A DNA stretch of 64,000 nt, from assembly GCA_963747695.1 (NCBI GenBank), contig CAVVFV010000010.1, forward strand, positions 5,618-69,617. The letters are read 5' to 3'. The first letter of the stretch is position 1. Each line of letters opens with the position of its first letter. This document shows positions 51-55,318 of this stretch, one piece after another. This DNA is from Candidatus Falkowbacteria bacterium (GTDB taxonomy: Bacteria > Patescibacteriota > Patescibacteriia > Patescibacteriales > WJLG01). A program made the position numbers and the translations under genes. The notes beneath the pieces were generated by a model. It ran no database searches and was not told the DNA's origin. It worked only from the letters and a program-made list of their open reading frames with translations.

Positions 51-560
51 AAAATCCTAAATTTAAAATCCTAAATCCTAAACAAATCCAAATGTCCAAA
101 ATTCAAAATTAAAAACCGTTGCGATTAAAGATTATTGCCGGTTATTTTTTTCTGACTTTGTAATAATCGCGCCAAATATTTTCATCAATTCCACTGATTC
201 GTTAATCAACCGTTGTTTCTCTGCTTTTAAACTTAAATTGCTTCCTTCCTCAATCAACTTAAGCCAATAACGGCTTTCCTTGGCTTCCTTGCGGCTTATT
301 TTTATCCTAAAAATAAAGTCTTTTTTGCTTAATGATTCATTGGCCTCGATGTAATTAGCTCCTACAGAGCCGGATGATCTGATTACCTGTTTTGCATCCT
401 CGATATTGGCAATGGAACTCGGAATCACTTTAATAAATTTTCTTACCCGGTCGGCAAATTCCAATGTCCGATTTTCCAGATCATAGTAATTCACCCTCGC
501 TGTTTTGAACATTAGAATTTTGAATTTGTTTAGGATTTAGGATTTCGTGCTTAGAATTTA
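51..560. repeat. class-I hairpin cassette: inverted-repeat arms enclosing four-helix-bundle ORF 132..512
   Basis: 66..87 'aaatcctaaatcctaaacaaat' is the exact reverse complement of 524..545. Simple-sequence flanks (aatcctaaa / tttaggatt) extend the arms. Confidence 0.85.
132..512 (-). CDS. four-helix-bundle protein (23S rRNA intervening-sequence protein / DGR-Avd-like family)
   Basis: 126-aa ATG ORF. Family-typical motifs 'SSGSVGANYIEA' and 'RKEAKESRYWL'. About two-thirds identical by eye to ORF 6556..6930. Enclosed by a perfect 22-nt inverted repeat (66..87 / 524..545). Confidence 0.85.
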   Translation of the reverse strand: MFKTARVNYYDLENRTLEFADRVRKFIKVIPSSIANIEDAKQVIRSSGSVGANYIEANESLSKKDFIFRIKISRKEAKESRYWLKLIEEGSNLSLKAEKQRLINESVELMKIFGAIITKSEKNNRQ

Positions 561-4080: not shown

Positions 4081-4189
4081 TTTTTTAATTTTGTAATTTT
4101 TAAATTTTTAAAATAAATCCTAATTTTTAATTTTTAAAAATTAAGCCTTAAAAATTCTTTCAAAAATTTAAAAATTAAAAATTAATTTG
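4081..4189. repeat. AT-rich inverted-repeat element, family 'aaaattaaaaatt', copy 1
   Basis: The core at 4115..4169 is ~95% identical to 13366..13421. The outer arms 4081..4109 / 4162..4186 are complementary. Confidence 0.75.
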
Positions 4190-4197: not shown

Positions 4198-4554
4198 TCA
4201 AAATAATCCCTCGAAATACGGGACAAATATTATCAATCCGACGGCGATGGCCAAGATTGCGGCGATCATCACGGCCGCGGCCATGATATCTTTGGCGGCC
4301 ATCACCGACTCGTGGATCCTCGGCTTAAGCACGTCGGCCAGCCGTTCAATCGCGCTGTTGACCGTTTCCATCAGGATCACCAAGGCGATGCAGATCAAAA
4401 TGGCGCACCATTGCCAAGGCTGGATCTTAAAAACAAAGCCTAAAGCTATTACAATTATAGCAACTAATGAGTGAATCTGTAAATTTTGCTCCTCGCGAAA
4501 AATTTTGAACAAGCCGCGGAAAGCATAGCCGAAACTCTTGAATAAACGAATCAT
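4198..4554 (-). CDS. dgkA: diacylglycerol kinase / undecaprenol kinase family protein
   Basis: 118 aa with three TM segments. Motif 'EEQNLQIH...ETVNSAIERLAD...AKDIMAAAV' is typical of prokaryotic DAGK. Confidence 0.85.
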   Translation of the reverse strand: MIRLFKSFGYAFRGLFKIFREEQNLQIHSLVAIIVIALGFVFKIQPWQWCAILICIALVILMETVNSAIERLADVLKPRIHESVMAAKDIMAAAVMIAAILAIAVGLIIFVPYFEGLF

Positions 4555-4660
4555 TGTTATATTGTCATACTGTTATATTGCTATATTGCTGCGCAACGAA
4601 ATAAATATTTATTGTAATTTAAGACGTCACTTAACAATATAACAATATAGCAATATAACC
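4553..4660. repeat. 'empty' class-II hairpin between ybeY and dgkA
   Basis: Built from the same caatataacaa/ttgttatattg units as the arms at 1296..1731. A 17-bp perfect stem joins 4572..4588 and 4643..4659. The loop begins 'gcgcaacgaaataaata'. Confidence 0.75.
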
Positions 4661-4664: not shown

Positions 4665-5081
4665 TTACTTCTTACCTTTTTTTTTCAACTTACCAATAAA
4701 TTTTTCTCCTAAATTAATCATGTGTAGTCGGTCTTTTTCCGTCCGGTCATCGTAGCCGCCGAGGTGCAATAGGCCGTGAACCAGGATAAAGATCAACTCA
4801 TTTTGAAAGGCGTTGCCATTTTCTTTGGCTTGCCGGCGGATTTGCGCGGGATCGATGATAATTTCCCCAAAAAAATCTTCATCTCCACCAAAAGACAACA
4901 CGTCGGTCGGACAATTTTTCTTCCGGTAGCGGAAATTCAGCTGCTTCATCTTGGCATCGCCGATAAAGGCAATCGAAACATCTTGCTTGGACAAATTCCG
5001 GCTCCGCAAAAATTTTTCCGCCACCCCTTTTATCAACCGTTCGTTAATCTTAAATTTAGTCGTGTTATTAATCTCAATCAT
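4665..5081 (-). CDS. ybeY: rRNA maturation endoribonuclease YbeY
   Basis: 138 aa with the zinc motif 'HGLLHLGGYDD'. Confidence 0.9.
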   Translation of the reverse strand: MIEINNTTKFKINERLIKGVAEKFLRSRNLSKQDVSIAFIGDAKMKQLNFRYRKKNCPTDVLSFGGDEDFFGEIIIDPAQIRRQAKENGNAFQNELIFILVHGLLHLGGYDDRTEKDRLHMINLGEKFIGKLKKKGKK

Positions 5082-5087
5082 TTAAAT

Positions 5088-5220
5088 AAATCTGAAATAC
5101 AAAATCCAAAAATAAATTCAAAATCCGAATAACAAAAATTCTAATCGTTTTGAATTTTGAATTTTTAACATTTGAATTTGTTTAGGATTTCGTGCTTAGA
5201 ATTTCGGATTTGATTAGAAT
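5088..5220. repeat. 'empty' class-I hairpin (no ORF in loop) upstream of ybeY
   Basis: 5174..5211 'gaatttgtttaggatttcgtgcttagaatttcggattt' matches the leader motif at 522..559 and 6940..6978. Nested pairings are 5136..5144/5196..5204 (9 bp) and 5119..5129/5203..5212. Confidence 0.7.
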
Positions 5221-6480: not shown

Positions 6481-6978
6481 TTAAATCCGAAGCTAGAAAT
6501 CCGAAATCCGAAACAAATCTAAAATCTCAAATCAGTAAAAACTAAAATTTTAATTTTATTCCTCTTGGGTTGAATTTCTTAAAATAGCTCCGAAAATTTT
6601 CATTAATTCCGTTGCCTCATTGGCTAAAAAATTTCTTTCCCGCGCCGCATTCTCGTAATTTCCGCAATCAATTAAAATTAGCCAGTATCTGCTTTCTTTG
6701 GCCTCCTTGCGACAAATCTTTATTCTTAAGATAAAATCTTTTTTACTTAAAAAATTATTAGCTTCGATATAATTTGCACCCACCGAACCGGACGATCTTG
6801 CCAATTGTTTCGCATCTTCAATATTTGATGTTGAAAACGGAATAACTTTTAGAAAATTTCTAACTTTGGCTGCGAAATTAAGTGTTCTCTCTTCCAAATC
6901 ATAATAATTAATTCTCACTGTTTTGGTCATTGGAATTTTAAATTTGTTTCAGATTTCGTGCTTCGGATTTCGGATTTA
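6481..6978. repeat. class-I hairpin cassette enclosing four-helix-bundle ORF 6556..6930
   Basis: 6497..6512 pairs perfectly (16 bp) with 6962..6977, and 6511..6518 pairs with 6942..6949. The right arm carries the conserved 'aatttgttt.ag.atttcgtgctt.g.attt' motif. Confidence 0.8.
6556..6930 (-). CDS. four-helix-bundle protein (IVS/Avd-like family)
   Basis: 124-aa ATG ORF. 'SSGSVGANYIEANNFLSKKDFILRIKICRKEAKESRYWL'. Bracketed by inverted repeats 6481..6528 / 6932..6978. Confidence 0.85.
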   Translation of the reverse strand: MTKTVRINYYDLEERTLNFAAKVRNFLKVIPFSTSNIEDAKQLARSSGSVGANYIEANNFLSKKDFILRIKICRKEAKESRYWLILIDCGNYENAARERNFLANEATELMKIFGAILRNSTQEE

Positions 6979-8008: not shown

Positions 8009-11000
8009 CTATTGGCTCTGGCAGGTTCCATTGGTACCGCAGGACGAACCGGCGGCTTTGCCATTACAGGCGTTTTTAGCGGCAGCCGGATCGGAACAGA
8101 CAATATTCTTACCGAAAAAATAAGATTCTTTCAGCAAGTCTTGGCAAGTTCCGCCCGCGCCGCAAGCCGCGCCGACCGGCAAACCGGTGCAGGTACCCGG
8201 AGCGTTAGTATCAGTACAATCCAAATTCGAACCAAGCGAAGTGACCGGATTGGTTACCGTGGGCAGATCGGCAGCGCTGCCGCCATTGTCGCGGCAATAA
8301 TACAATTCATAATTCATCGGATTGCAGACGGAATTCAGCGGATTCGTCGGGGACTTGACGCAGCCGCCGCCCAAAACCGCATCCAAAGTATCAAACCAGG
8401 GGCGCCAAGGAATTCCTTGCGACTGCAGATTATCCGGCCAGGTGGAAGAACACATAAAGACATAAACATCAGCCGTGCTTGAGGCGTTAGGATTTGGCAC
8501 GCTTTGATTGACATCCGTGAAAGTTCGAGTGTCGGTCAGATAAACTTTGGCTAAAAGCTGGGCTTGGGCATCGACAACTCCCGCTACCGCCCGAACCAAT
8601 TGCTCCGGAGCAACATAATCAAAAGGCTGAATAATGCCATTGTTGTTATTATTAACGAAATTGACCGCCAGGGTATTGCCGTTCTGCCAACTCCAAGTCC
8701 AGGAATATCCCTTTACCGGATGAAGGACCTGATCGTCGGCGGACAAGGCGGCGGCGGTGAAAGCTTTATCGTTGTCGGCAGCCGTATCAAAAGTCTTCGA
8801 GGTAGGATCGTTGTCGTTTTCATTCAAATCACTGTTGGAGTGATTGATCAGATAAGAATCGGGGGAAATAGAAACGTGGTCAATGCCGCAAATGCCGTCA
8901 TCTTCGCCGCTGGCTTGTTTGGTCTTGAACCACCAAAGGTAAGAATTAGTGAAAGCGACACCGTCAAATTGAGAGTAATTGGCCACCGGACTAGCGGAAC
9001 CAAAAACATTCAAGCCGATATCCCAGTAACTTAATACGGCGCCGGTAGTGGTGGACAGATCATGCACACCCCTGACCACGGCATAATAAACAGTGTCCGG
9101 TTCAAGGACGATCGAAGGTTGGAAATTAAGGATCGTCTTATTATCCCCTTCCTCGGCGCTGGAAACATTTCCCGGCACGGAGCAATAAAGATGAGAATTA
9201 TCCGGCACATTCGCGAGGCTCTGCTTACCAAACAGCCAGGTTAAATGTTCGCGCGCATCAGCCAGCAATTTGTCGTAAGTTTTCTCAAAAATATTTTTAT
9301 TCTGCAGGCTCACGTTCGCCGTTCCGATCTGGGTCGTGCCCGAGGCGCACTTGGCGTCGCCCGCCACTTCCTCGATTAAAATAAAATCATCATTAAAACT
9401 TCCGGTGTCCATCTTTTGATTGAAAGACACGCCCAAGTCGGCGTTGGTGCAAACATTGGTTACGCCGTTATCAGGCGTGATGGTGGAAACGCTGGGACGG
9501 GCGCGGCAGCAGGAATCCATGCCGCAGCCTTGATAATCCGGTGTTGCTCCCGGCGGAACGCAGCTGTCATTGCCTTGGCAGCCGCAGCAAAGTCCGCGGC
9601 TATCGCCCGAGCAAGGAGTCTGATTCTTTCGGCAGGACAAAGCGGAATTCAAACCCAAATCATGACAAGCGTCGTAAGTGGAGGCATCGGTTTTATCCGC
9701 TCCGATTTTAGTCGGATCGCAGCAGCAGAAGCCGCAACCGGCCGCGGCCGGTTTATCCGGAGCTTTCGCTCCGTTGTCGAGGAGACAACTGAAAGGACCG
9801 GAGCAGATGCCTAAATTGCAAGTATCAGGCTGGTTCTGATTTTGGCAGCTGACGCCCAAGAGAGAATTGGAAGATCCGCATTTATCATTGCACTCGGCCG
9901 AGGAAGGGAAGAATGGGCTGGCCGGCAAACTGGTCGGAGTCGAACAGCCGGCGGCATTATCGCCGCACTGAAAATAACCGCAAAAAGTACTGCCTTGATA
10001 ATTCACGATCGGTAATATATCGCCCAATGTATTGTCATAAGATAAATTCTTACAATTGCCGCTTTGCCGATCAACGCAGCAAGCGCCGGAATGATCGCGG
10101 CAGGAAGCGGCATCGGACATCGCCGCGCAATCGCGGCAAACTCCGTCGGGAAAATTAGTAGTGTCAGAGGTATCGCAGAATTGCCCGGTATGCGCGGCGC
10201 AACTGCAGGCCGCATCGGAACCGGCAACGTCTACCTGGCCGGCATTCGGACCGGAAGAGAAAAGTTTTTTGCAGCCGCCGCAAGAACCGTAAGTCGTCGG
10301 ATTGGCCTTGCCGACATCGCTGCCGCAAGTCCCCTCGCATTTCAAGGGAGCACAACAATCCTGGTTGGCATTGGCTTTCTGACAGCAGCAAGGACAAGTA
10401 TTCCCTGGAGCTTTTTCGCATTGTCCGCTGACGCAAGTTGAACCGCCGGCGCAGACCTCACTCGCCGAACCGCAAACGCCTTGATGCGAAGCGGGCTGGC
10501 TCGGATCGGCCAAACAGTCTTGCTTGGCATTGAGGCAGATCGAGCACGGGGTCGCGGTGTCGACACAAACCGGGATGCCCTGAACATCAATGCCGCGAAG
10601 ATTGAATTTTGCCGAACAGCGGGGACCGGCCTTATACATATAATAGTAGAAGAGATTATTGCTCACATCTTTATAAGCGCCGCAATAAGTATCATGAGAG
10701 TTGCCCAAATCATCGACGGTGGTGCTGGCTAAATCGCAAACCTCGCTATGGCCGCCGGTATTTTCCACACATCTGTTGAGTTGAGAACTATAAACGCAGG
10801 TGCCGGAGTCACAACCGGGCTGATCCTGGCAATGCGAATCATCGCAATTAACTGTCGGCGAAAAAGGCTGCAAAACAGGACTGCCGGTTAAAGGCGAACA
10901 CTCGCCCGGAACATTGGGACAAGTCAGTCCCAAAGTGCAGGCGCCGGTCGCGTTACTTATTTCCTCACAGCTTCCCGGAGCAGTCGGGGAAGCAATCGGC

Positions 11001-13333: not shown

Positions 13334-13342
13334 TGACACGCT

Positions 13343-13440
13343 TTATAATTTTTTAATTTTTAAAGAAATCCTAATTTTTAATTTTTTTAAAAATTAAGCC
13401 TTAAAAATTCTTTAAAAATTACAAAATTACAAAATTAAAT
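13343..13440. repeat. AT-rich inverted-repeat element, copy 2
   Basis: Shares its core with copy 1. Shares both termini with copy 3 ('ttataattttttaatttttaaa' and 'tttaaaaattacaaaatt'). Confidence 0.75.
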
Positions 13441-18195: not shown

Positions 18196-18229
18196 TAAAA
18201 AAATACCGCCACTTGAGGCGGTATTTTTA
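18196..18229. terminator. bidirectional intrinsic terminator between convergent rel and rpsU
   Basis: Stem aaataccgcc/ggcggtattt with A and T tracts on both sides. Confidence 0.75.
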
Positions 18230-20689: not shown

Positions 20690-20809
20690 TGTTTTTAAAA
20701 AATAATATCCCCTCCTTGTTTTATGGGGGAGTTTTGCGAGTAATTTAACTTATACCCAATATAACATTAAAAAATACGGCAGTCAACCCTAAAAAATAAT
20801 CCGAACCTG

Positions 20810-20888
20810 CGAAATATCCGAATACTACGAACCCTGCAAATCGAAAAAAAATTCGTTGTATTCGCGTATAATTCGTAGTATTCGTATT
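20810..20888. repeat. 'cgaatac' family hairpin upstream of lepB
   Basis: 13-bp perfect stem 20819..20831 / 20872..20884, with an inner palindrome 'tcgaaaaaaaattcg'. Confidence 0.7.
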
Positions 20889-20920
20889 ATCTGACCGAGC
20901 AAATTAGAAAGTAAGCAGTG

Positions 20921-21039: not shown

Positions 21040-21090
21040 GCCATTTATCAACAGCGGCAAACAACCAGAGACAAAGTAATTAAAAAAAAT

Positions 21091-21192
21091 GTTATACTGC
21101 CAAATTGTTATATTGTTACGCAACGAAATAAATAACAATGGTGTTTATTAAAATCGTTGCGTAACAATATAACAATTTAACAATATGACAAT
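21091..21192. repeat. 'empty' class-II hairpin, 25-bp perfect stem
   Basis: 21102..21126 'aaattgttatattgttacgcaacga' is the exact reverse complement of 21154..21178. The 27-nt loop begins 'aataaata', as in 4553..4660. Confidence 0.85.
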
Positions 21193-21248
21193 GCATTAAT
21201 AAAACACAAAAGAGGCCCTTGCGAGCCTCTTAGTGCTATATGAAAAAT

Positions 21249-22409
21249 TTATTTCTTGACTTGGTATTTCTCCCCGACCTTTTCAAAGACTTCTTTATCC
21301 ATTAAGGCGAGGTTGATGGTGGTGTTCTTGACCATCCGGTTCTCCAAGACTTTCTTGATGATCTCGTCTTTGGAGAGCGGACCGCTTTCGACTAAGATAT
21401 CGCGGATCACATCGGCGACGACGCCTTCTTTATAACCCCATTCCTTCAAACCGTAGATGCCGCGGCCGATCAAAACGTATTTCGGATCCAGGATCAATTC
21501 ATTGTGGACAGTGGCCGGATTGGCGGTCTTATGATCGAAGCTTACTTCGTTGATGCGCTTGGCAATATCCACGAAATGCATCGGCTTGCCCTGATTCTTC
21601 AACACCAGATAAATCTTATGATTGATGGTCTTGGGCGCCACTTCTTCCGAATTATAGACTCCCCAGAAACCGAATTTATTCTGCTCAATGTCCTTGACGG
21701 CCACCAGCAAAGAATAGAGGATCTTATTGTTATTGATCAATTCCGAATCTTCATCGAACAAAGCTCCATCCCAATAGCTGGAAACGTCGACCTCGGACGG
21801 CACATCCAATTTATCTTTGTGTTCGCCGTAAACATCAGTCTTGGTGACGAGGTCGATCGCCTCGTTGGTTTTGATCACTTGTTTCAGATTGGAAATTCCT
21901 CTGACCATTTCTCTGGCCAAAGCTTCCAGATGATCCAAAGATTCGCACTTCAATTTATAAGAGGTCTTGAAGATATCGGAATCTTTGATCTCTTCGAATT
22001 CATCGTGCAGCAAGCGGGAAAGCATAAAATCATACTGATTCTTTTCCACTTCATAATCATCGCTTCTGTATTCGACCGGAGAGAAAGTATTCAAAAGGTG
22101 GAATAAATATTCCTTTTCCGCCAAGCCGCCGTGCTCAACCAAAAGCTTATTGGTGATTTCCCGCAGATCAACCAGCTCCTCCTTCAATTCCTTGACCTCG
22201 CGCAATTTCTTGATGGTGGCATTCTCAATCTGGCGAATGCGCTCGCGAGTCAGATTGTGCAGGCCGCCAACCGCTTCGAGAGTTTCCTTCTCACTGTCCT
22301 TCAAACCGAACCGACGGGTGATGATATCCCGTTCTTTCTTGGAAAGCCTCGCCAAAAGACTTTTCACAATTTCGTTGGTGTTTAATTTTGTGCTGCTTTC
22401 GTTAGACAT
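21249..22409 (-). CDS. sigma-70 region-4-like HTH protein with C-terminal winged-helix (HARE-HTH-like) domain
   Basis: 386 aa. 'ERDIITRRFGL...TLEAVGGLHNLTRERIRQIENATIKKLR' matches sigma region 4. No region 2 was seen, so it is probably not a canonical sigma factor. Confidence 0.6.
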   Translation of the reverse strand: MSNESSTKLNTNEIVKSLLARLSKKERDIITRRFGLKDSEKETLEAVGGLHNLTRERIRQIENATIKKLREVKELKEELVDLREITNKLLVEHGGLAEKEYLFHLLNTFSPVEYRSDDYEVEKNQYDFMLSRLLHDEFEEIKDSDIFKTSYKLKCESLDHLEALAREMVRGISNLKQVIKTNEAIDLVTKTDVYGEHKDKLDVPSEVDVSSYWDGALFDEDSELINNNKILYSLLVAVKDIEQNKFGFWGVYNSEEVAPKTINHKIYLVLKNQGKPMHFVDIAKRINEVSFDHKTANPATVHNELILDPKYVLIGRGIYGLKEWGYKEGVVADVIRDILVESGPLSKDEIIKKVLENRMVKNTTINLALMDKEVFEKVGEKYQVKK

Positions 22410-23203: not shown

Positions 23204-23293
23204 AAAATATCCAATAAACAATATCAAATATCCAAAAAATATTAAAATATTTAAATATTTTTTAAAATATTGGCTATTTGATATTGGATATTT
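23204..23293. repeat. 'aaatatccaata' hairpin filling the yebC-ruvC gap
   Basis: 12-bp perfect stem 23205..23216 / 23282..23293 with an imperfect extension. The arms touch the ruvC start and the yebC stop. Confidence 0.7.
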
Positions 23294-24740: not shown

Positions 24741-27700
24741 CTATCTTTTCGCTCCGCTGTAAGCGATGGCGCGGACCGCGTCCCAGGCGCGGGCGGTTAC
24801 CGGATTATGCTTGAAGAAATAATAATAAGCCTTGATGGCGATCTTTTCATTGGTCTGATTCCTTTGGGCCGGACGCAAGCCATAAGCCATGATGGTGACG
24901 GCGTTGTTATCATAAGTATTATTCATATTCGCAGGGCGGCCATAAATAGTCTTGAAGCTTTCTTGCGCCGTCTTAATCGCTCCCGGACTTTGTTTGGTCG
25001 GCCAGCGGCCATTGCCGATCTTCAACACATCTTGCCAATCAGCCAAAGTTACGGGCAGATAACCGTAAGCGGATTGGAAAGAAGAAACCGAACCGCCGCG
25101 TTCTCCCGCGCCAAGAATGTGGGTGGTCGGCGTGCCGACATGGATGAAATAGGCAATCGTGATCTTTTCTTGAGCCGTTAACGGCGCCGTAGCCAAAGCG
25201 ATCACTCTTTGATAGACCGACAATTCCACCGCCGGAAGAGCGACATATTGAGCGTTGGCTAACAGAGTGTCGGCTTCGTCGGCGGTAACTTGATTGACGA
25301 CCGCGCTGCTCGCGCCGATCAAACTGGTAACAACGCCGCCGGAACTGCTGCCGCTAGCCGGAACGACCACGGAAGGCGGCAAAATATCCACCGGCGTAAC
25401 GACGGTCGCTTGTCCCGAACCGGCCGTCGCCGCGGTTGTCCGGGCCGTAGAATAATTTAAATTATTATCGTACGAGTAGATTGAGTAATAATAAGTTTGA
25501 CCGTTGGACAAACCAGAGTCCACGAATTTTTGCGCATTGCCAAGATAAATTACCGAGGCTAAAGGATCGGTGTAACCGGAAAGCGGCGACCCGAGTTTAT
25601 GATAGATCTTCACGCCGGCAAAATCACTGTCGCTCGGATTCGTCCAAGACAGCGTAATCTGGCCGTCGGAACTGGTGGCAAAAAGATTACTTACCAGGCC
25701 GGGCGGAGTCGTGTCTGGCGGCTTGACCGGGGCCGAAGCTCCGCCGCCGCCTCCGCCGCCTCCTCCCCCGCTGCCGCTTCCATTTCCACTATTATGAACA
25801 GTAGCGCAAGAAACTAAAATATTATTGACGTCAGCGTCAGCCACAATCCCTTGGCCGGAAGATATTGTACAAGTCTGACTGCCGGGATTGGTCAAAACTG
25901 TTACGTTATATCCAGCCGCATCATCCAGCTCGGTGGCAAAATTAAATACGCCGTTGGCCGAGATGATGAGATTATCGCCGCCGTTATTCTGCAAAATAAC
26001 CGTACCGCTCAATCCGGAAACCCTGCCGCCGATCACATAAGTATCGGCGCCGGCATCGCTGGCGTAAGCCGCCGAAACAACATGGTTGGCTTGGATATTA
26101 TTAATAATGTAGGTCGAACTCGTACTGACTAAAACCGAATCGACCAAAATGCCGGTGACGTGATAGCCGGTGGTGGCAGTAACCGTGTAACCTTGACTCT
26201 CGCCATAATTTTTGGTGGTGATACCCGAGGGAGCGATCGTGCCGTATGAGCTGCTGGAAGCGGTGATCGTATAAGTGTTGATAGCAAAACCGGCGCTGAC
26301 GGAAATATTTCCGGCAACATTAAGGTCCTTTCTCGGATTGGCCGTTGAACTATCGCTCCAGAGAGTAAAATGATAACCGGCAATCGGTTCAGCCGTGACG
26401 GCGGCGCCATCGGCGCCCGGCGCGACCGATTGGTTTGAGTTGCCCAAGATCGATCCGTTGGCTCCGGCGGAATAAGCCAGCGTGTAAGGAGACAAGGCCG
26501 TTTGAAAAGTGAAATCAGTCGTCGTGGCCGAATCGCCGGAAGAATCATCGGCAATGATCTGAAAATGATAAATATTATTCGGCGTCAGTCCACTAAGCGT
26601 CACGGAATTGGAAGTTGATGACGGAGTGGAAGAAGAAACCGAACCATAATTTTCGTCTGGGCCGTAATTGACCGCCGAGTCCGCCGCGACATTGGTCAAC
26701 CAGGAAATCGTCGCCGTGTAAGCGGTTGTCGAAGAAGAAATCTGATAGATGACCAGCGGTGCCGAAATATCCTCACAGGAAATATTAATATCAGAGACAG
26801 CTGCTCCGGCAATAGTTCCGTAATAATGATCCACCGAACAGAGCTGACCGGACGGCTGATTCAAAACCGTCACATTATAAGCGGCGCCATCGTTCAAAGC
26901 CGTGGCAAAAGCATACGGCCCATTGCTGGTAAGATCCAAATCATCGCTGCCGTTATTCTGCAAAGTGACCGTGCCGGAAAGTCCGCTGACCGATCCGCCG
27001 ACGGTATAAGTCGGCAGCGTTACCGTGACCGGCGCGCTGGCCGAAGCGGAAATATTTCCTGCCGCGTCGCGAGCCCAGGCATAAAGAGTCTTACTTCCCG
27101 CGTCGGCAAAAGTATAAGTCGTGGTAGCGGTTGATCTCCACTCCGGATCATCGGCGGACGGGATAGCCGAAAATTCGTTGACCAGATAACCGGTAACGCC
27201 GGTATCGTCGCTCGCGGTAAGAACAATCGGAACGGAAAGCGAGGCGGAAGTCGAAGATACTACGAAAGAATCGATGGTCGGCGGCGTGTTATCCGAAGGC
27301 GGTCCGCCTCCCCCGCTCTCCGCGGTGGTGAAAGTATGGTCGCTCGAAGTCGCGCGGTTGCCGGCAGCATCGGTCGATCCGATCTGAAAATGATAAATCG
27401 TATCGGCTTCAAGGCCGCGCAAAGTTATCGAGTGTTCCGTTTCAAGAGAATCAGAAGATGAAGCCAGACCATAGCCGGAATCAAGGCCATAACTGACCGA
27501 TGAAGTCGCCGGCTCATCGGTCGTCCAGGTGATGGTGGCGGAATCGGCCGTAGTGGAAGTGCCGGTCAAAGTAATCACCGGCGGAGTAATATCCGAAGAC
27601 GAAGAAATATTATTATCGGCCGGCCGGAAAACGGCGATCGCGGCGCTATTATTTACATCACCGGTAACCGTCCAGGTCGGATCATAGCTATCGGTATCCG

Positions 27701-30700
27701 GCGCGATATAATAAGCCATCGCCCCGTCCATATCGCTCCAATTATGTTCGCTGTCGGAAATATTGAATCCGCTATCGATGCCGAAATCGGTTCCGTTGGA
27801 ATCGCCGCTTGAGAAAGCACTGATCAATAATTCTCCAGCTGAAGCGGGTGCGACGCTGCCGGTCGAAATCGTATTGCCGGAATTCGTGGTGCTGCCGTTG
27901 CCCGTGTCATAAGGATCACTGTCAGTGGCTATGCCGCTCCAAGCCGTTACGGTCAGAACCGGATAGTTTGATGACGCGCCGTTGACGGAAAAAGTCTGCT
28001 CCGGACTGGTGGTCGGGTGATAGGCATACCAGATCTGCGCATAACCGTTATAGCCGGAATTATCCCCTCCTGCTGAAGTGCCATAAGCCTTTAAGTGATG
28101 CCAAATATTATTCATGCTATCGGTAATGCTGACGGTGGAAGTGGAATTATAAACATGCAGACCGACGACGATCAAACTGGCGCCGGTGGTATTGATAGCC
28201 GGCGTGGTCACTCCTTCACCTTCGTCGCCGCTGTCGATTACACCAGTCGAGGCTAGCAAACGGATGCTGGTCGAAAAAGTTGTGAAGGTATGATCGGCGG
28301 AAACAGTCTCACTGCCGTCGGCATCGGTAGTTTTTATGCGATAGTGATAAGTGGCGGGAACATCCAGGCCGCGCAGCGTGATCGAATGTTCAGTGACGAA
28401 AGCATCGGAAGATGAGGCATTGCCGTAAGCGTCAGTCAAGCCATATTCGACGGTGGAAGTGGCGGCTTCGTCGGTTATCCACGTTATAGTGGCGGTCGCG
28501 CCGGCCGTGGAAGTGCCAATGGCTAAAATTATCGGAGCGACAAATTGATCCGCGCCGATATCCCAAACCGAGCCGCGAGCTTGGCCGTCGATGTCGTCGG
28601 AGAAAGGAAGGTAAGGATCGCTAGATAAATTAATTCCCGCCCCGATAGCAGTCGTGTCGTCGGCGGACAAATGATAATCATTATTAGCGATACTGATAAA
28701 CGAAACTGTGGCGGAATCTTTAGAATGAGCGCCCGGAGCATCGTTCAAATTGGAAATATTATAATCACCGGAAATATTTCCTGAATATCCAGAAGATATG
28801 GCATTTTGTACGATATTATTTTCCGCCTCAATCGTGCCGGTAGCCTCCGCAAATATGCTTTGATCGCAATTTACCAAAGTATTGCTATAAGAATAAATAT
28901 TGCCGTCGCTAAGACCAAAGCCGTAACTATTATGGTTAGCGCTTGAATAATCATAGAACAAGCTGTTCCAAACTTTAATATTCGCTGGTGAATCCCAGCT
29001 TGAATTGCTTAAAGCAGTCCCGCCGTTTATTAAACCGGTAAAATTAGCCCGGCTAATATTGTCAGACACTCTAATATCAGAATTAATGTCATTAGGATAA
29101 ATTTCATAGGTTGTCGCCCAAGCATTTCCACTTCTAATAATTTCAGTCTGTAAGCCGTCAAGCCGAACAAATTTAGAATTAACAGTGATCAATTCGTTTT
29201 GAGTGTTATTGTCGATCAAGGCATATTTAGTTTCGTCCCATTTCCCAGAATGCCGCTGAGTCTGATTTACTTGCGAAGTAGTGTTATTTGGCGCGTATAT
29301 ATTTATGTAATTACTCGAGCCGGTATTCCAGCCATCAATGGTGACGGCGGACGTGTCCGGACCAGAATCGTAATAGCAAGGGATGTTTAAAATATAATTT
29401 CCGGCGACCAGGTCGGAAGTATCAAGATAATTAGCGCCCGAAGAGCCGGACACGGCGTTTTCTAGTGAAGCAAACGCGTGGGCGATGGAATCGACTGACG
29501 CGCCGGAAATATCAGCGGGCGTCGCGCCGAGCGCGGTAACCAAAGTCCATTGCGTGGTGGAAATCTTGCCAGCTATATAAGCGACATTATTCGTATCATA
29601 GGTCACTTCATCGCCTACTCCCATATTGGTCGCCGTTTGCGCCACGGAAAAAGTTCCGACGCCATCACTGATGGTTAAAGTCGGCGAGCCCGTCTTATGA
29701 TCATCAGTATTCTGGCCGACGGAATAATAAACATTGGTAGTTGTCGCCACATATTCATCCGCGCCGATATCCCAAGCGCCGGTAGCCGGCCGCGAATTGC
29801 CGGCCAAATCACTATTGAAAGCATAATCAGGATCAGAGGTCAGATTTGCACCCATGCCGATCACCGGAGAGCCGGCCTTAAGCCGATAATCATCATCGGC
29901 CGGATTGGCAAAAATATCACCAGCTGCACAAGCCGAACCGCCACATGCCGTATTTAAGTCCAATAAGTTGGTGCTAAAATCTTCACCGTAATAATTAAAA
30001 TTTCCAGCATTATTTGTCGAGCCCGAGACCGAAGCATCAAGCTCGCCGGGATTACCGAAGAAAATATTATTTTTAGCGGTAAAATTTATCACGCTGCCTT
30101 CCGCCGCGTAATTGTAATAAGTGTAGGTGTTATTGGCAAAAGTATCATTGTAAATAAATGCGTCGGTGGTAGAAACATCTTCTCCGCCGCGAATCCTAAG
30201 GCCAGCGCCAAAATCGTAGATCAAATTATTTATCACATAAGCCCGGTGGCCTTCAGCCAATGATCCGCTGACAATCCCAAAACTTTGAGCTATGGCGTGC
30301 CCCTTGAGGATATTATCAAGAATATAGTGATTTCCCGCGGCACCGCTAACTCCAAGGGCATTTTGCCCGCTTGACTGTAGATCGCTCGTCCCTTCGATTT
30401 GCAAACCATCAATAATCAAATAGTCCACGCCCGATCCTGAGATAGTCGAATCGTTTGTGTTAGGAGAAACATGATATTTAGCCGGATCCCAAATTGCGCC
30501 GTGGCGCTGGCTCACGCCAACCTCGGAAGATAAATAAGGAGCATAGATGCGCAAATAATTTTCCGGACCGGTCACCCAGCCGGCAGCAAAATTTACAGCT
30601 GCCGTGTCAGTCGCGTCGCCATAGCAAGCGATATTCCAATATTCATTATTAGCCACCAGGTCGCGGCCGGAATCGGCAAAATTATCGCTCGGTACGACCA

Positions 30701-33700
30701 GTGAAGGATTAAGAATGCCGTTAACTGCGTCGTTCAACGAAACATAAGAGCGATAGATTTCCCATTTGCTTTGGCCGGAGGTGCCGACCGGTGTCTGGCC
30801 AAGATGATCCTTAACTACATATTCAGTCGTGGAAATCCGGCCCTGGATGAAAACGATCTCGTCGCCCGAATCAATTATGCCGTTGCTGTTGGCATCAAAT
30901 TCAATCGCGTCGCCAACGCCGATCTTGTCCGGCAGAGCCGAAGAGAAAGTGGCGACGCTACCGGAAATAGTCAGAGTGTTGGCGAGACTGCCGGAAACTA
31001 GTGCGCCGGTACTACCCGGGCCGACCGAACGGTAAATTGGCGTGGCGGTTGCCTGGACATATTGATCCGCGCCAACATCCCAGGATGTGCCGCGAGTCTG
31101 GCCGTCGATATCAGTAGAGAAGGCGATTTCGGAATCCGCCGACAAATTTGTACCTTGGCCGATGGCCGCGGTATCGCTCGCCACCAAATGGAAATCACCA
31201 TTGTTGGCATTGACGAAAGTTATCCGAGCATCATTCTGCGGATCGGAACCGAACGCGCCGGACTGCGTCGGACCGGAAAGGTTGTCAGTTGAGGAGGCAG
31301 TAAAATCTTCTCCGACATAATTAGTCACATTGTCATAAGAAATATTATTCTTGGCGGCAAAATTTCCGCCATAGGCGATCACGCCGCCGTTGGATTGATA
31401 AACGGTATTGTTGTAGGCATAACAATTTCCCGAATCGCAATAGATGCCGCCCTGGTAGCTGTTGTAAGGCGCATAGCCGAATCCGTAAATAATATTATTC
31501 CAAGCGTAAACGGTGCTGTTATCGTCCTGATCATGGGCGCCGATGCCTTCAATGTATCCATCTTGAGTCAATACTCCCCAGATAATATTGTCAGAAAACC
31601 AAGCCGCGCCGGCCACGCTATTGCCCCGGTCCAAACCGCAGCCGTATTGACCAAGGAAGGTTGATTTTATCTGCAGGCCCTCGATTTTGACATAACCGAC
31701 TGATTGGACGCTGATAGCGGAAACATCGGTACCCGATATTTGCAGATTGTATTTGCTATCATCCCATTTGCCCTGGTGCCTTTGCGACAAATTAACCTCG
31801 GTCGCCACATTGTCCGGCGTATAGATTTTCAGGTAATTACTCGGGCCGGTATTCCAGCCATCAATGGTGACGGCGGACGTGTCCGGACCGGAATCGTAAT
31901 AGCAAGGGATGTTTAAAATATAATTTCCCGCGACCAAGTCGGAAGTATCAAGATGATCCGTGTCGGCTGCGCCGCCCACCATATCTTCCAGTGAAGCGAA
32001 AGCATGAGTGATGGAATTAACCGTCGCACCGGAAATATCCGCTGGCGTAGCGCCAGTAGCGGTAGTGAGAGTCCATTGCGAAGTGGAAATCTTGCCGGAA
32101 ATATAAGCGACTTGATCAGCATCATAAGTCACCTTGTCGCCTACTCCCATATCGGCGGCTGTTTGCGCCACGGAGAAAGTTCCGACTCCGCTAGCGATGG
32201 TTAAAGTGGGATTACCGGTTTTGTGATCATCCGTGTTCTGCCCGACCGAATAATAAACCGGCTTGGGCGCGGAAAAAGTTATGGTCACAGTCGAGCTAGC
32301 TGGCGCGGACAGATTACCGTCGGCGTCGCGTACCCAGGCATAAAGTTTGTGGAACCCGAAGGAAGAGAACGCGTAAGAAACCGGAACCGTGCTTGACCAT
32401 TTTTTATCATTGAGCTGCGGAGTGGAAGATGATTCGCTGACAAAATAGCCGGTAACACCAGTATCGTCGCTGGCGGAAAAAGTCAACGGCACCGTTAAAA
32501 GATAGGTGGCTGCCGGAATTGAGAAAGCGGTGATGGTCGGCGCGACAATATCCAGCGAAGTGAAAGTCTGATCGCCGTAAGTCGTACCGCTCATCTCGAA
32601 ATGATAAACAGTTTTCGGAGCCAATCCTTTGATGGTGATCGAGTGTGCAGTAACGACGGCCGCTGATGAAGATGATAAGCCATAACTTTCGGCCGTGCCA
32701 TAATTTATTAACGAGCTGGTCGCTTCATCGGTAGACCAGATGATCGTAGCGCTATTATTTCCCCGAATCACTTGGAAGGAATAATCAACCGCACCGATAT
32801 CCCACTCTCCTGCCGGACGAATCGCGCCGGTAATATCATCGGTAAAAGCTAATTCCGGATCGGCGGAAAGATCAGCGCCCTGGCCTTTAACCGGCGAACC
32901 GGCCGCGAGACGAAAATCATTATTAAGCGGATCGGTAAAAATTGCCGTTGCGGGATAAGAAGATAGATCCAAAGCATCCACAGCCGGCGCGTTGCCATTG
33001 GCATAAGCGTTATTGGTAGAGGAAGCATTGATAGAGTTGCCATAATAATCATAACGGTTGCCGTAAGAAATATTATTTTTTTCCAGCGTATCCGAGCCAT
33101 TCAATATGCCAACCCCGCAATCGGATACGGTATTGTTATAGATCCGGGAAACGACAGTCGCATCCCCGGAATTTCCAGCTATTCCGGTGCCGTCATCTTT
33201 ATTATCGAACCCGTAAATAATATTATTCCAAACATCGAAATATCTGATCGGATCACCAGCGTTGTTATAATAATTCATACTGATGCCGGATCCGCCATAG
33301 CTTTTTCCGCTCACGACGCCGGCAATAATATTGTCAGATAGCCAAATGTGGGCGCCGCCGTCAACGCCGTCGGTCGTAAAACCGGAAGCTTCATAAGCGT
33401 TGGAATCAATCGTTTTAAGTTGTAAGCCGTCAATTTTAAGAAAATCAGCAGCATCATCAATGACAGCATCGTCGGTTACCGTTAGGGCGAACTTTTCATC
33501 ATCCCATTTACCGTTATTCCGCTGTGATCGATTGGACTGGTTAGCGATATCGTCCGGGGTGTAAATATTGATGTAATTACTCAGCCCAGTCGTCCATCCG
33601 GTTATATACACTGCAGCTGTATCCGGACCGGAATCGTAATAGCAAGGTATATTCAAAATATAATTTCCCGCGACCAAATCGTTGGTATCAAGATGATTAG

Positions 33701-36700
33701 CGTCTGAAGCGCCGGTGACGGCATTTTCCAAAGAACTGAAAACATGAGCGATGGAATTAACCGTCGCGTTGGCAACATCGGCTGGCATTCCGCCGGTCGC
33801 CGTGACCAAAGTCCATTGCGAGGTGGAAATCTTGCCGGAGATATAAGCGGCCTGATCGGTATCATAAGTTACTTCATCGCCCACGCCCATATTCACCGCC
33901 GTTTGGGCCACAGAGAAAGTGCCGATGCCATCAGTAATGTTAAGAGTCGGCGAACCGGTTTTGTGGTCATCGGTATTCTGGCCGACGGAATAATAAACAT
34001 TGATGGCGGTATTTTGATATTCAGACGCGCCGATATCCCAAGCTGTTCCTTGCGGACGAACCGTTCCGGTAATGTCATTATCAAAAGCCAAGTCTGGATC
34101 AGCGGAAAGATTCGCACCCTGGCCGATCACCGGCGAACCAGCCTTGAGCCGATAATCATCATCGGCCGGATCGGCAAAAATGGTCGTCGAAGCGTAGCTG
34201 GAAAGATCGACACTGTTTGTGCCGGGATCAGCACCGATAGAATAAGCATTGTTGGTCGACTCATCGTCGCCCATGATCGTCACACCATAATCCGAATCGG
34301 TGCCACCATAGACAAGATTATTTTTAAGCTTCAGCAGATAATCAGTGGTGCCGCCGTTATCATTGACGATGCCATCAAAAGCGTTAACCACTGTATTATT
34401 GTCGATAGCCAATTTAGAACCTGGGCCATAAGCCGTGATCAGGATCCCGTAATTATTGACGCTGTGCGCCGGAGCAATGATTATATTATTAAAAATATAA
34501 TCATAGTAATCAGCTTGCGACCGCACTGGAGCAGAAATCTCCTCATGAGCGGTATTCTGCGCCGGGCCGCTGTCTTTGATGATATTGTCGCTCAAATAAA
34601 CACCTTGGGCATAACCGTCATAATCGGTCTGCAACCCGATGCCATAATCATAATCATATCCGATATCATCGATCTGCAATCCTTCCACGCGGGTATAATC
34701 GCGCCAAATAATCAGCGATTCCGTATTGGAAACCGGCTCGATCCGGTATTTGCTATCATCCCACTTGCCATTCGCGCGCTGACTGACGCCGACCTGGCTG
34801 GGCAGATACGGGGTAAAGATATTGACATAGTTGCGGGCGCTAACCGTCCAGCCGTCCACCTCGGCCTTATCGTCGGGCGCATCGGCATAGCAAGCGACAT
34901 TCCAAACCGAATTCGGCGTGACCAAGTCACGATTGTTTTCATTCGGATCAGTGTCAGTCGGGAAATTATCGAAAGGAACCGGAATGGAAGTATTGATAGC
35001 AGTGTACCAGCCCACGGCATTCCACAGCGAAGTGTAGGCTCGATAAACCGCCCAATGCGAAGCATTCGTTATATTAATGGTAGATGAAGAACCGTGCTCG
35101 GTTTGTACACCGTAAGAAGAATCGGAATTGCGGTGATCGATAAAAACGATCGAATCGCCGGAATCCAGACTACCATTATCGTTGCTGTCATAAACGATCG
35201 CATCGCCGACGCCGGAATTGTCCGGCAAGGAGCCGCCGGAAAAAGTCGCCGCGCCGTTATTGATGGTCAAAGTGAATGATTCAGTGCTGGAAGCCAACGC
35301 AGTAGTGCGGCCTGGACCGACCGAACGATAGATTTGCGTCGGCGCAGTCAGGGTAATATCCACGAATGTGCTGGCGCGATCGGAAATATTGCCGCTGAAA
35401 TCTTTAGCCCAGGCATAAAGATTTTTATGGCCGCCGGTCAAAAAATTATGAGTGAACGGAACAGTTGCCGACCAATCCGGATTATCACTTACCGGAGTTG
35501 AAGATGATTCACTAACCAAATAACCATTAATGCCGGCATCGTCGGTCGCCGTCAAGGAGGTTATGGAAACATTCAGGCGAGATGAAGAAGTGGCGATTGA
35601 GAACGAGGTGATTACCGGCGGTGAAACATCTAACGTCTGAAAGGTCTGATCTCCGTAAATACTAGAGTCGATCTGAAAATGATAAATAGTATTGGCTGAC
35701 AACCCCTTCAAGTTGATAGTATGCAAAGTAACGATTGCGGCGGAGGAAGAAGACAAGCCGTAGCCAGTAGATTCACCATAATCAACCTGCGATGATTCGG
35801 CGTCCGCGGTCTGCCAGATTATTGTGGCGGTTGTTGCTCCAGGAATTATCTGATAATCAAATTCCTGCGCGCCAATATCCCAAACGCCGGAAGCGGGTCT
35901 GGCCTGGCTGACAAAATCAGAATCGAGAGGCAGAACCGAATCGTCGGTAAGATTGGCGCCCATGCCGATTACCGGCGAACCAGGCTTGAGGCGGAAATCT
36001 TGGTCGGCCGGGTCGGCAAAAATTGAAGTTGAGGCATAACCGGAAATATCCAGGTCGCTTGCGCCAGGATAGCCATGATCCCAAGAAGTATAGGCATTAT
36101 TATTCTCTGTACCTCCATCGACAACATCATCGGCGAAATCCCAGCTGGAGCTGTCATAAATCAAATTGTTTTTCAATTCCAAACGATAATCAGTGACACC
36201 CGGCAGATAATCATCAATGCCGTCGCCCATACCGACGATGGTATTGTTATAAATGGCAATCTTAGTACTGCTCGACACTGGGTCATTATCGCCGCCGTGG
36301 ATGGAGATTCCGGGAATATCAAGGCGGTTCACGGAATCATAGAGCAGATTATTAAAAATGTAATCATAATAATCTGTTTGCGACCGGAGCGCAACTTCGA
36401 TCAAGCGGGAATTCGAATCAGCACCCCCTTCTTTAAGAATATTATCGTCGACGTAAATTCCTTGCACGGCCAAACCGTCATTGCCATCGGTCCGCAGCTC
36501 GATATCGTCAATCCATTGCGTGCCGGCGGTCGTCGATCTGATCTGTAAACCTTCAATCCTGGTAAAATTCTGCCCGACGTATATGATGTCATTGGAATTA
36601 GTCGGATAAACATTCGCCGGCGACAGATGATATTTGCTGTCATCCCATTTGCCGGCGTGACGTTGGGAAACTCCAACTTCCGTAGGCAGATAAGGAGTAT

Positions 36701-54242: not shown

Positions 54243-54330
54243 AAAATGTAAATCTCAAAATGCAAAATTATAGAATTCGCCTGAGGCAAAAAAATACTAA
54301 TTAATTTTTCATTTTGACATTTTCATTTTA
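54243..54330. repeat. 'aaaatgNaaat' hairpin immediately downstream of tRNA-Pro
   Basis: Arms 54243..54269 / 54303..54330 are imperfectly complementary. Same family as 54796..54847. Confidence 0.7.
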
Positions 54331-54340
54331 CACTACTTTG

Positions 54341-54411
54341 TCGGGCTGCTGGGAATTGAACCCAGTCTACATGCTCCCAAAGCACGCGTACTACCGGTAT
54401 ACGACAGCCCG
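54341..54411 (-). tRNA. tRNA-Pro (anticodon TGG)
   Basis: Cloverleaf built by hand. Acceptor CGGGCTG/CAGCCCG, anticodon stem CGTGC/GCATG, loop TTTGGGA, T-arm CTGGG-TTCAATT-CCCAG. No encoded CCA. Confidence 0.8.
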
Positions 54412-54550
54412 TCTTCGTCACCCTGCGGGCGACTTCGACGGGTAGAGCCCGCGTAACCCGCACTAATCTATTAACCATTATTTATTTAGAAAAATAATTT
54501 CCGTTATGGCCGTTTTCGTCACAAGGATTTAATAAGGTCCCATCGGAAAT

Positions 54551-54708
54551 GTGATTTTGGAAGGCATCGTTTCCGTAGCGAAACCGAAAAAATCAGAGAT
54601 AGAATTTTTTGGATTTTTCGAGACGTACTCGCGTACGTTGAGAAAATCCGAAAAATTATAGCCTGATTTTTACGGTTGCAGCAGGAAAAAGATGCCTTCC
54701 AAAATCAC
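54551..54708. repeat. 158-nt long imperfect hairpin 5 nt downstream of tRNA-Phe
   Basis: 18-bp perfect basal stem 54551..54568 / 54691..54708. Apical palindrome acgtac-tcgc-gtacgt centred at ~54630. Confidence 0.8.
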
Positions 54709-54713
54709 CCCTG

Positions 54714-54785
54714 TGCCGAGGGTGAGAATCGGACTCACAACACAGCGATTTTCAGTCGCTTGCTCTACCACTGAGCTACCTCGGC
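54714..54785 (-). tRNA. tRNA-Phe (anticodon GAA)
   Basis: Acceptor GCCGAGG/CCTCGGC, D-arm GCTC-AGTGGTA-GAGC, anticodon loop CTGAAAA, T-arm GTGAG-TCCGATT-CTCAC. No encoded CCA. Confidence 0.85.
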
Positions 54786-54795
54786 GAAAATACTG

Positions 54796-54847
54796 TAAAA
54801 TGCAAATCTCAAAATGAAAAATTTTTCATTTTGACTTTTTCATTTTA
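54796..54847. repeat. 52-nt palindrome immediately downstream of tRNA-fMet
   Basis: 54796..54821 against the reverse complement of 54822..54847, with few mismatches. The 13-bp core 'tcaaaatgaaaaa/tttttcattttga' is perfect. Confidence 0.8.
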
Positions 54848-54858
54848 AACTACTGTTG

Positions 54859-54930
54859 TTGCGGGGGCCGGATTTGAACCGGCGACCTCCAGGTTATGGG
54901 CCTGGCGAGCTGCCACTGCTCTACCCCGCG
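54859..54930 (-). tRNA. initiator tRNA-fMet (anticodon CAT)
   Basis: C1/A72 mismatch, A11:T24, anticodon loop CCCATAA, T-arm GCCGG-TTCAAAT-CCGGC. Very similar to E. coli tRNA-fMet. No encoded CCA. Confidence 0.85.
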
Positions 54931-54941
54931 ATGTTCAGATC

Positions 54942-55010
54942 GAAAGATAAGAGAGAATAGATAAGAGATATTTAAATCCCCGTTCATTATCTCTTCTCTC
55001 TTATCTTTAA
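54942..55010. repeat. 'aagataagaga' hairpin between tRNA-Ile and tRNA-fMet
   Basis: Left arm 54942..54970 and right arm ~54988..55008 are complementary. Confidence 0.7.
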
Positions 55011-55030
55011 TCTGCTCTCTGTTTAAGGTG

Positions 55031-55104
55031 TGGGCAATGATGGAATCGAACCATCGACCTCGTCATTATCAGTGACGCGCTCTAGCCATCTGAGCTAATT
55101 GCCC
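55031..55104 (-). tRNA. tRNA-Ile (anticodon GAT)
   Basis: Acceptor GGGCAAT/ATTGCCC, anticodon loop CTGATAA, T-arm GATGG-TTCGATT-CCATC. No encoded CCA. Confidence 0.9.
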
Positions 55105-55318
55105 GAAAAAATAATGCTAATTTTCGAATGATGCGAATCTACGAATATAATAATTCGCCTGTTCCCGATTCACATTTAAAGGTGCTTTAAATTCCGCAAA
55201 TGTCATAACTCGCCTTAAGCCAAATTGTACATACGAAAAAAAGCCCCCATAAAGCTGATGTCAATATAACAAGAAGTCATGGAAAAAGCAAGCTAATTTT
55301 AGACGATATTTATTGTAT

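Follow-up and report, generated by a model that had tools for sequence, protein, structure and literature searches.

What is the palindrome of about 105 bases that separates ybeY from dgkA in a Candidatus Falkowbacteria genome, where does it come from, and how is it tolerated between two genes? The window that we have analyzed is a stretch of 64,000 nucleotides of contig CAVVFV010000010.1 (assembly GCA_963747695.1), and coordinates refer to it unless they follow the label of a comparison locus (L001, L002, and so on). We call the junction element E2 (4553-4660) and compare it with two other elements of the window, E3 (21089-21192) and E1 (1296-1731), the last of which carries an open reading frame (ORF) for a four-helix-bundle protein of the family PF05635. 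The arms of these elements fall into classes by their short repeated units: class I has AAATCC-type units, class II the octamers of E1, E2 and E3, and class III AATTTTTAA units. We consider it probable, if well short of certain, that E2 is a non-autonomous, ORF-less derivative, similar to a miniature inverted-repeat transposable element (MITE), of a cassette that resembles the intervening sequences (IVSs) of ribosomal RNA (rRNA), and that it was inserted at the ybeY-dgkA junction in this lineage only.

The inverted repeat is plain in the DNA. The exact reverse complements 4572-4588 (GTTATATTGCTATATTG) and 4643-4659 make 17 base pairs with 54 nt in between, and a repeat search places the arms at 4556-4583 and 4632-4659 (28 nt, 86% complementary). 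Both arms are built of 8-nt tandem units, TTGTTATA, TTGTCATA, CTGTTATA and TTGCTATA. The left arm (4553-4588) reads ATTGTTATA-TTGTCATA-CTGTTATA-TTGCTATA-TTG, and its outer end touches the dgkA start codon (CAT at 4552-4554); the right arm (4632-4659) reads TAACAATA-TAACAATA-TAGCAATA-TAAC and is 5 nt away from the stop codon of ybeY (4665-4667). The interior (4589-4631), of 43-54 nt, holds a conserved box GCGCAACGAAATAAATA at 4591-4607 and is free of ORFs, so that no PF05635 ORF sits in the loop. The units themselves are far from randomly spread. With at most one mismatch, TTGTTATATTG has 18 matches in the window where 1.76 are expected, a number that none of 100 shuffles reaches, and 14 of the 18 fall in 1297-1730, 4554-4653 and 21105-21191, that is, in E1, E2 and E3. 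Isolated matches at 55262 and 20757 are lone units without partners, which we judge to be chance or relics.

Arms made of low-complexity tandem octamers invite the explanation that E2 grew in place by simple-sequence slippage and has nothing to do with E1 or E3. The interior is where this explanation fails. E3 is an ORF-less class-II sister, a near-perfect palindrome with 46-nt arms 85% complementary and an inner stem ACGCAACGA/TCGTTGCGT; its alignment with E2 spans both elements in full, about 100 nt, whichever way they are oriented. A sequence-only reading of this locus had noticed that a string at the start of the E2 loop recurs in a second hairpin, and so it does: the 16-mer CGCAACGAAATAAATA occurs exactly at 4592 and 21119 and nowhere else in the window, against an expectation of 0.14 when up to 2 mismatches are allowed. 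When the arms are masked and only the interiors are compared, a 16-nt exact block remains, and 0 of 5000 dinucleotide shuffles match its score. The alignment therefore survives the removal of the low-complexity units, which supports the common origin that the same reading had preferred to simple-sequence expansion. Slippage would in addition have to cope with an order of variant units common to E2 and E1, with the presence of the same elements in unrelated metagenomes, and with the lack of any class-II units in the searched relatives L002-L029. We reject it, and give it almost no chance of being right.

The kinship with E1 lies in the arms. E1, on the minus strand, is a class-II cassette with 40-nt arms, 85% complementary, around a PF05635/TIGR02436 four-helix-bundle ORF (1316-1693) that begins with an ATG at 1693 and has its stop codon inside the left arm. 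The left arm of E2 and both arms of E1 share the order of their variant units over 33 nt (ATTGTTATATTGTCATAyTGyTATATTGyTATA), so that the claim that E2 uses the units of the cassette is borne out by more than composition, and over this arm segment E2 and E1 can be aligned.

The interior box leads to the cassette by another way. In the E1 orthologue of the syntenic relative L152/L153 we find an arm, ATTGTTATATTGCTATATTGTTATATTGTT, then GCGCAACGAGAATAA…, and then the ATG of the PF05635 ORF; this GCGCAACGAGAATAA leader is the E2 box with one extra base. The question of whether the motif flanks four-helix-bundle ORFs elsewhere thus has a positive answer in that relative. The box of E2 is common to E3 and L081, where the 17-mer GCGCAACGAAATAAATA is exact, and the junction of an arm with [A/G]CGCAACG is found in L082, L113 (two copies), L081, and two further hairpins of L152. 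Overall, class-II arms consist of 3-5 tandem ATTGTTAWA octamers, and one subfamily has the inner box TTGYT[A/G]CGCAACGA. Among members of this CGCAACG subfamily the register of the arms shifts, and the inner box keeps its sequence instead of covarying. The E1 of the window has no inner box, and therefore E2 and E3 would descend from a version like that of L152 and not from present-day E1. By these alignments E2 is shown to be homologous to E3 and to the cassette leaders of relatives, and we conclude from the sequences compared that the cassette has in E2 and E3 two relatives without an ORF. The description of E2 as 'empty' is apt, as class-II arms bracket PF05635 ORFs in E1, L150, L152, L052, L096, L154, L160 and L164. 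Deletion of the ORF from a cassette is the simplest route to E2.

How tightly do arms and protein belong together? In all 14 cassettes inspected, the arm class matches the PF05635 subfamily: class-II (ATTGTTNN) arms go with an E1-type protein in 8 of 8, and class-I (AAATCCGAAA-type) arms with a protein of the type encoded at 132-512 in 6 of 6. By record name, the hosts of these cassettes are Bacteroidetes, Pacebacteria, Falkowbacteria, Nitrospirae, Levybacteria and Sedimentisphaerales. Such agreement shows arm class and protein subfamily to be, as far as can be read from these cassettes, inherited together. Both protein types are abundant: for the E1 type, 2202 homologues pass E ≤ 1e-10, with identities of about 70% and with Patescibacteria and Bacteroidetes as the named hosts, and the 132-512 type has at least 8000. 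A phmmer search of the E1 protein against PDB sequences gave no match. The ORF of E1 has a dN/dS (the ratio of nonsynonymous to synonymous divergence) of about 0.07, which indicates that it is under purifying selection. A cassette ORF is always oriented like the gene upstream of it, and cassettes often split tight gene pairs.

The window itself has two class-I cassettes, both on the minus strand, one at 47-564 (AAATCC-type units, PF05635 ORF at 132-512) and the other at 6483-6970 (PF05635 ORF at 6556-6930). There is also an ORF-less class-I hairpin (5082-5215) that retains the 5′ arm and leader of the cassette (AAATTCTAAGCACGAAATCCTAAACAAATTCAAATG). A class-III hairpin (4086-4189), with AATTTTTAA units and the core AAAAATTAAGCCTTAAAAATTC, stands directly downstream of dgkA. 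In other phyla, class-I PF05635 cassettes split tight gene pairs: one separates the large-subunit gene of an aconitase-family enzyme from the small-subunit gene (L168/L169 2001-2366, named Sedimentisphaerales), and another stands between the genes for enolase and a His_Phos_1 phosphatase or mutase (L166 2001-2366, named Levybacteria).

A more ambitious reading of the match between arms and proteins is that PF05635 proteins are sequence-specific partners of their own octamer arms, for instance as pentameric rings on 3-5 units. They would then form mobile, transposase-less, hairpin-bracketed cassettes in the transcribed spacers of many phyla, with the rRNA IVSs as a special case, and E2 and E3 would be non-autonomous members that the E1 protein maintains or mobilizes in trans. 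We put this forward as a speculation that is more probably wrong than right. If true, it would mean that these cassettes colonize rRNA helices, rRNA and tRNA spacers, and operon junctions alike.

The recent history of E1 brings in a different role for the empty hairpins. Between the window and L150 (9963-10401), nucleotide identity is 89-97% in E1, which stands as an island between flanks of 40-83%. The synonymous divergence (dS) between the two genomes is 0.33 in E1, 0.88 in the adjoining 400 nt, and 1.7 or saturated in dgkA and ybeY. On this measure the E1 cassette is shown to coalesce later than its neighbours, and a dS so low relative to theirs suggests that E1 was exchanged recently, although it may have other causes. 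Such an exchange at one and the same locus, together with arms of 25-40 nt that the empty hairpins of a class share with its cassettes, could mean that E2 is a landing pad in the DNA, a recombination handle by which a cassette with matching arms enters by homologous recombination after DNA uptake. The IS110-family transposase near the class-II half-arm of L081, which has the E2 box, also fits, as hairpins may serve as DNA targets. But the class-I cassettes of the window occupy junctions that have no arms in L150 and L152, which means that they brought their own arms to naive sites. We found no orthologous pair of empty hairpin and filled cassette of the same class, and the proposal leaves the spread of empty hairpins to new junctions unexplained. 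We regard the landing pad as improbable.

We return to E2 as an insertion, for which the junction in other genomes provides the evidence. The upstream cistron is ybeY (4665-5081, minus strand; YbeY, PF02130, 2.4e-29) and the downstream one dgkA (4198-4554, minus strand; DgkA, PF01219, 1.4e-32). The best matches of this YbeY are in metagenome-assembled genomes of Patescibacteria and Candidatus Falkowbacteria, with 71-75% identity at best, and the species has no entry among the GTDB representatives. In distant relatives the two genes are close together, with gaps of roughly 3-45 nt: L003 has 3 nt from the ybeY stop to the dgkA ATG, and the gaps in L005, L013, L014, L016 and L018 are short. None of the 28 ybeY-containing GTDB loci searched (L002-L029) has class-II units or the box. 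Two of them, L002 and L015, have unrelated inserts at this junction. In L002 (6390-7400) there are four GC-rich tandem repeats, each about 120 nt long (…gtcattccgaccgg…cgggatgacaaag), and a GIY-YIG ORF after them; the insert of L015 is a hairpin whose type, 'gtcattcc…ggaatgac', is related.

Closer syntenic relatives, located by a search with the E1 protein, tell us more. The junction is occupied by a class-II hairpin in the window, by a class-III hairpin in L150/L151, and by one of an ATCCGAA class in L152. The core of the L150/L151 hairpin is near-identical to the class-III elements of the window at 4090-4181 and 13342-13433, and the left arm of the L152 hairpin to one at about 20795-20890 of the window. 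Homology between the genomes stops in the last codons of ybeY and restarts exactly at the dgkA ATG. The final codons of ybeY (…GKLKKKGKK*) are unlike those of every relative, and lie within the variable inserted tract. Because the junction is tight in distant relatives and holds different hairpin classes in close ones, E2 is, judging from these comparisons, a lineage-specific insertion in a junction of fast turnover. This shows that IVS-like elements colonize ordinary operon junctions and are quickly replaced there. Cassettes behave in a similar manner: the junctions orthologous to those of the class-I cassettes of the window (132-512 and 6556-6930) have no arms in L150 and L152, and therefore cassettes would arrive together with their arms.

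An identical contig of 1070 bp from Logan (L001) begins and ends within the spacers with hairpins on either side of ybeY and dgkA. The dgkA call of Logan on it (L001 647-1033) has 128 aa and reads through the TGA that ends a 118-aa ORF under translation table 11; this suggests that an alternative genetic code was used by the caller, and the long ORFs of the window fit table 11.

What would E2 do in a transcript? On the minus strand, which is the sense strand for both genes, positions 4564-4659 are predicted to fold into an interrupted stem of 9+17+6+5 base pairs, 37 pairs in all with 6 G:U pairs among them, closed by a terminal loop of 10 nt, with a free energy (dG) of -37.2 kcal/mol and a z-score of -6.4. 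The plus strand folds less well (dG -23.1, z -3.0). The perfect 17-bp stem with a 54-nt loop of the sequence-only reading thus holds as a DNA repeat and gives way, in the RNA, to this longer interrupted stem. In this fold the conserved motif is part of an inner stem and not of the loop. In E3, the box pairs perfectly (ACGCAACGA/UCGUUGCGU), and the sense RNA is more stable still (dG -49.4, z -10.4). The predicted E2 stem begins 5 nt past the ybeY stop and leaves 9 unpaired nucleotides (AAUAUAACA) before the dgkA AUG. Such a leader is not exceptional here. A Shine-Dalgarno-like motif precedes just 6 of the 32 window genes, and most starts follow AU-rich sequence or adjoin a hairpin arm; with so few Shine-Dalgarno motifs, a short AU-rich leader would be normal in this organism.

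A long stem between two genes is also what one would expect from an intrinsic terminator or attenuator, and there is in fact a T-rich tract after the stem. That tract is on the plus strand, which is antisense to both genes. The sense strand has AAUAUAACAAUG after the stem and no U tract, a promoter and terminator scan reports nothing at E2, and the E2 stem is AT-rich and very long, unlike canonical GC-rich terminators such as those at 18199-18228 and 21212-21231. We reject the terminator as very improbable. Rfam 15 gives no family match for E2 at the gathering threshold; at E ≤ 1 we see generic microRNA-precursor models alone, with 17-23 bits where the cut-offs are 80-91.

A more serious contender is selection on the RNA itself. 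If this junction needs a strong stem-loop, be it to let an endonuclease process the transcript and so uncouple the two mRNAs, to stabilize the ybeY mRNA at its 3′ end, or to keep stop and start close together for re-initiation, then a hairpin of any class would serve. That is consistent with the strong hairpins, of three classes, that all three close syntenic genomes have at the ybeY-dgkA junction, and with how tightly hairpins fit the gaps between stop and start (E2 begins 5 nt past the stop, and a hairpin at 23213-23292 is 0 nt from both its neighbours). Hairpins also occur between the genes of a tRNA cluster and in an rRNA operon spacer, and the sense strand of E2 is more stable than its complement by about 14 kcal/mol, with z-scores of -6.4 vs. 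-3.0.

The need for a hairpin is hard to reconcile with distant relatives that manage with gaps of about 3-45 nt. Moreover, about 12 of the intergenic spacers of the window hold such hairpins, and because of this number it is not improbable that one junction should be occupied in three genomes by chance. The class-III elements are found in both orientations relative to transcription, and arm sequences are conserved across phyla beyond their pairing, something that a purely structural role does not predict. The strand preference does not help either. Across AT-rich structured spacers, the sense strand is the more stable one in 59 of the 81 non-tied cases (22 are opposite; binomial p = 5e-5), but dinucleotide shuffles give -2.4 of the -3.3 kcal/mol of strand difference (an effect of G+T skew), and what exceeds the shuffles is without significance (p = 0.17). 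The shuffles reproduce most of the effect, and the asymmetry does not establish RNA-level selection. We consider a required hairpin possible and do not favour it; the chances are well against it.

The sequence of events that we propose for E2 as an ORF-less insertion is the following. A full-length member of the family has, enclosed by arms of this kind, a gene for a four-helix-bundle protein of PF05635, the '23S-rRNA intervening-sequence' family. E2 would have entered an otherwise tight ybeY-dgkA junction, to be co-transcribed with both genes and folded in the mRNA into the 37-pair stem-loop, with the ybeY stop and the dgkA start at its base. RNase III probably cuts this stem, as it cuts the stems of rRNA IVSs, and the cut would separate the two cistrons and leave dgkA with its short AU-rich leader. 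E2 would then be tolerated because it is folded away, a selfish or neutral passenger, possibly mobilized or maintained in trans by the E1 protein.

Several observations weigh against this account. There is no target-site duplication at E1, E2 or E3, nor in the alignment of the junction with L003, L150 and L152. Pfam and NCBIfam scans of all listed ORFs of the window other than the one of 6563 aa found no gene for a transposase, a reverse transcriptase or RNase III. (That single ORF takes up 24741-44432 on the minus strand.) The RNase III step is carried over by analogy from rRNA, and the strand asymmetry, which might have pointed to selection at the RNA level, is mostly reproduced by the shuffles. 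Descent may run either way, with E2 arising by loss of the ORF or the cassette by capture of an ORF in a hairpin. And since each of the three close relatives has a hairpin of some class at the junction, a hairpin may be required there.

E2 is one of many. A scan of metagenomes with an arm probe matched at least 120 stretches. Of these, about 25 are hairpins of 60-130 nt, placed -9 to +68 nt from the nearest long ORF (most of them within 30 nt) and mostly between co-directional genes, and L052 and L096 are filled class-II cassettes. E2 thus has in common with MITEs both terminal inverted repeats and a multicopy family, with three class-II elements in 64 kb and more copies in L152, L082, L113 and the roughly 25 metagenome loci.

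Some of the neighbouring features deserve mention. E3 is just downstream of the canonical terminator of the gene at 21249-22409 (minus strand), the product of which has an unusual architecture, an N-terminal sigma-70 region 4 with a domain similar to HARE-HTH and the delta subunit of RNA polymerase. In the cluster of tRNA-Ile, tRNA-Met, tRNA-Phe and tRNA-Pro genes at 54250-55160 (minus strand), each spacer has a hairpin of short units, and the arms 54303-54339 and 54787-54823 enclose tRNA-Pro and tRNA-Phe jointly. In L030 (about 9750-9830) a small class-II hairpin is found in the spacer from tRNA to 23S rRNA of an rRNA operon, of which the 23S gene has a group I intron. In L081 (9674-10928), the class-II half-arm with the exact GCGCAACGAAATAAATA precedes an ORF for an IS110-family transposase (PF01548, PF02371) by about 235 nt and a 16S rRNA gene by about 450 nt; a search beyond the IS110 ORF did not find the other half of this hairpin.

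Why should a hairpin between two genes of a Patescibacterium matter? The nature and spread of rRNA IVSs, and the role of the S23p/PF05635 protein, make a question that dates from about 1990 (PMC4990558). Here the IVS architecture, in which a long terminal stem encloses a PF05635 ORF and short tandem repeats precede its start codon, is found outside rRNA, in operon junctions, both with and without the ORF. For the annotation of genomes of the Candidate Phyla Radiation (CPR), these hairpins matter in three ways: much of the non-coding DNA consists of them, short-read assemblies break at them, and they distort the ends of genes, as in ybeY, whose C-terminus is encoded by a variable inserted tract. 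In the literature that could be searched we found no description of CPR MITEs, of CPR intergenic hairpins, or of PF05635 genes with inverted repeats outside rRNA.

How, then, should E2 be classified among known systems? Among described systems, the ORF-bearing rRNA IVS comes closest. In Coxiella, RNase III cuts the 28-bp terminal stem of the IVS, whose loop holds an S23p ORF with tandem heptamers ahead of its start codon; an S23p homologue is homopentameric and toroidal, the IVS has no known means of mobility, and ORF-bearing IVSs are regarded as selfish and horizontally spread (PMC4990558). ORFs of the 23S_rRNA_IVP type have been reported in CPR rRNA insertions (PMC11270868), and genes of that type between cas genes, without interpretation (PMC3936711). 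Like the ORF-bearing 23S rRNA IVSs of Coxiella and Leptospira, E1 has a terminal stem of about 28-40 bp around a PF05635 ORF, with direct tandem repeats of 7-8 nt just before the start, poor or absent translation signals, and no known mobility enzyme. E1 has the architecture of the ORF-bearing IVS, and E2, with its long stem from terminal inverted repeats (28-nt arms, 37 pairs), is the ORF-less form of it. Unlike IVSs, E1, E2 and E3 stand between protein-coding genes and not in helix 9, 25 or 45 of 23S rRNA. Rfam at its gathering threshold finds just four tRNAs and no rRNA in the window, so E2 is not inside a 23S or 16S helix. E2 has no ORF, and an excision from the transcript by RNase III without re-ligation would be by analogy with the IVS of PMC4990558.

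PF05635 also resembles its homologue Avd, the accessory protein of diversity-generating retroelements, and in that respect the cassette protein belongs to a family that resembles a pentameric four-helix-bundle protein binding nucleic acid and reverse transcriptase (PMC10053308). Unlike Avd systems, there is no reverse transcriptase and no pair of template and variable repeats near E1, E2 or E3 in the window.

Three other groups of elements share features with E2. The ORF-less IVSs in the 23S rRNA of Salmonella and other enterobacteria are extended hairpins of about 90-110 nt (cited in PMC11270868). Like them, E2 belongs to hairpins of about 100 nt in transcribed RNA that are sporadic, with several classes at one site in related strains; unlike them, it is in an mRNA spacer and not in an rRNA helix. 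Correia/NEMIS (Neisseria miniature insertion sequence) and other MITEs are multicopy intergenic palindromes of 100-150 bp that are co-transcribed with their neighbours and form hairpins on which RNase III acts. Target-site duplications flank MITEs, and their origin is in insertion sequence (IS) elements that encode a transposase. Like these, E2 is part of a family of intergenic palindromes, non-autonomous beside a longer coding element; unlike these, it has no duplication that we could find, and its partner E1, which shares its ends, encodes a four-helix-bundle protein without known catalytic activity. Repetitive extragenic palindromes (REPs), finally, consist of one imperfect palindrome each, about 35 nt long and as a rule rich in GC, and are tied to the gene for a REP-associated tyrosine transposase (RAYT) and can be targets of IS110-family elements. 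Like REPs and the bacterial interspersed mosaic elements (BIMEs), the hairpins described here are intergenic palindromes at gene ends, with a composition that varies between strains at one junction. Unlike REPs and BIMEs, their arms are 28-46 nt of tandem octamers, and the scanned ORFs of the window have no match of RAYT or transposase type.

Thus, we file E2 neither as an rRNA IVS, because it is not located in rRNA, nor as a classical MITE, because it has no duplication and no transposase. Our verdict is that E2 is a hairpin element of IVS-like form that has no ORF and stands at the junction of two operon genes.

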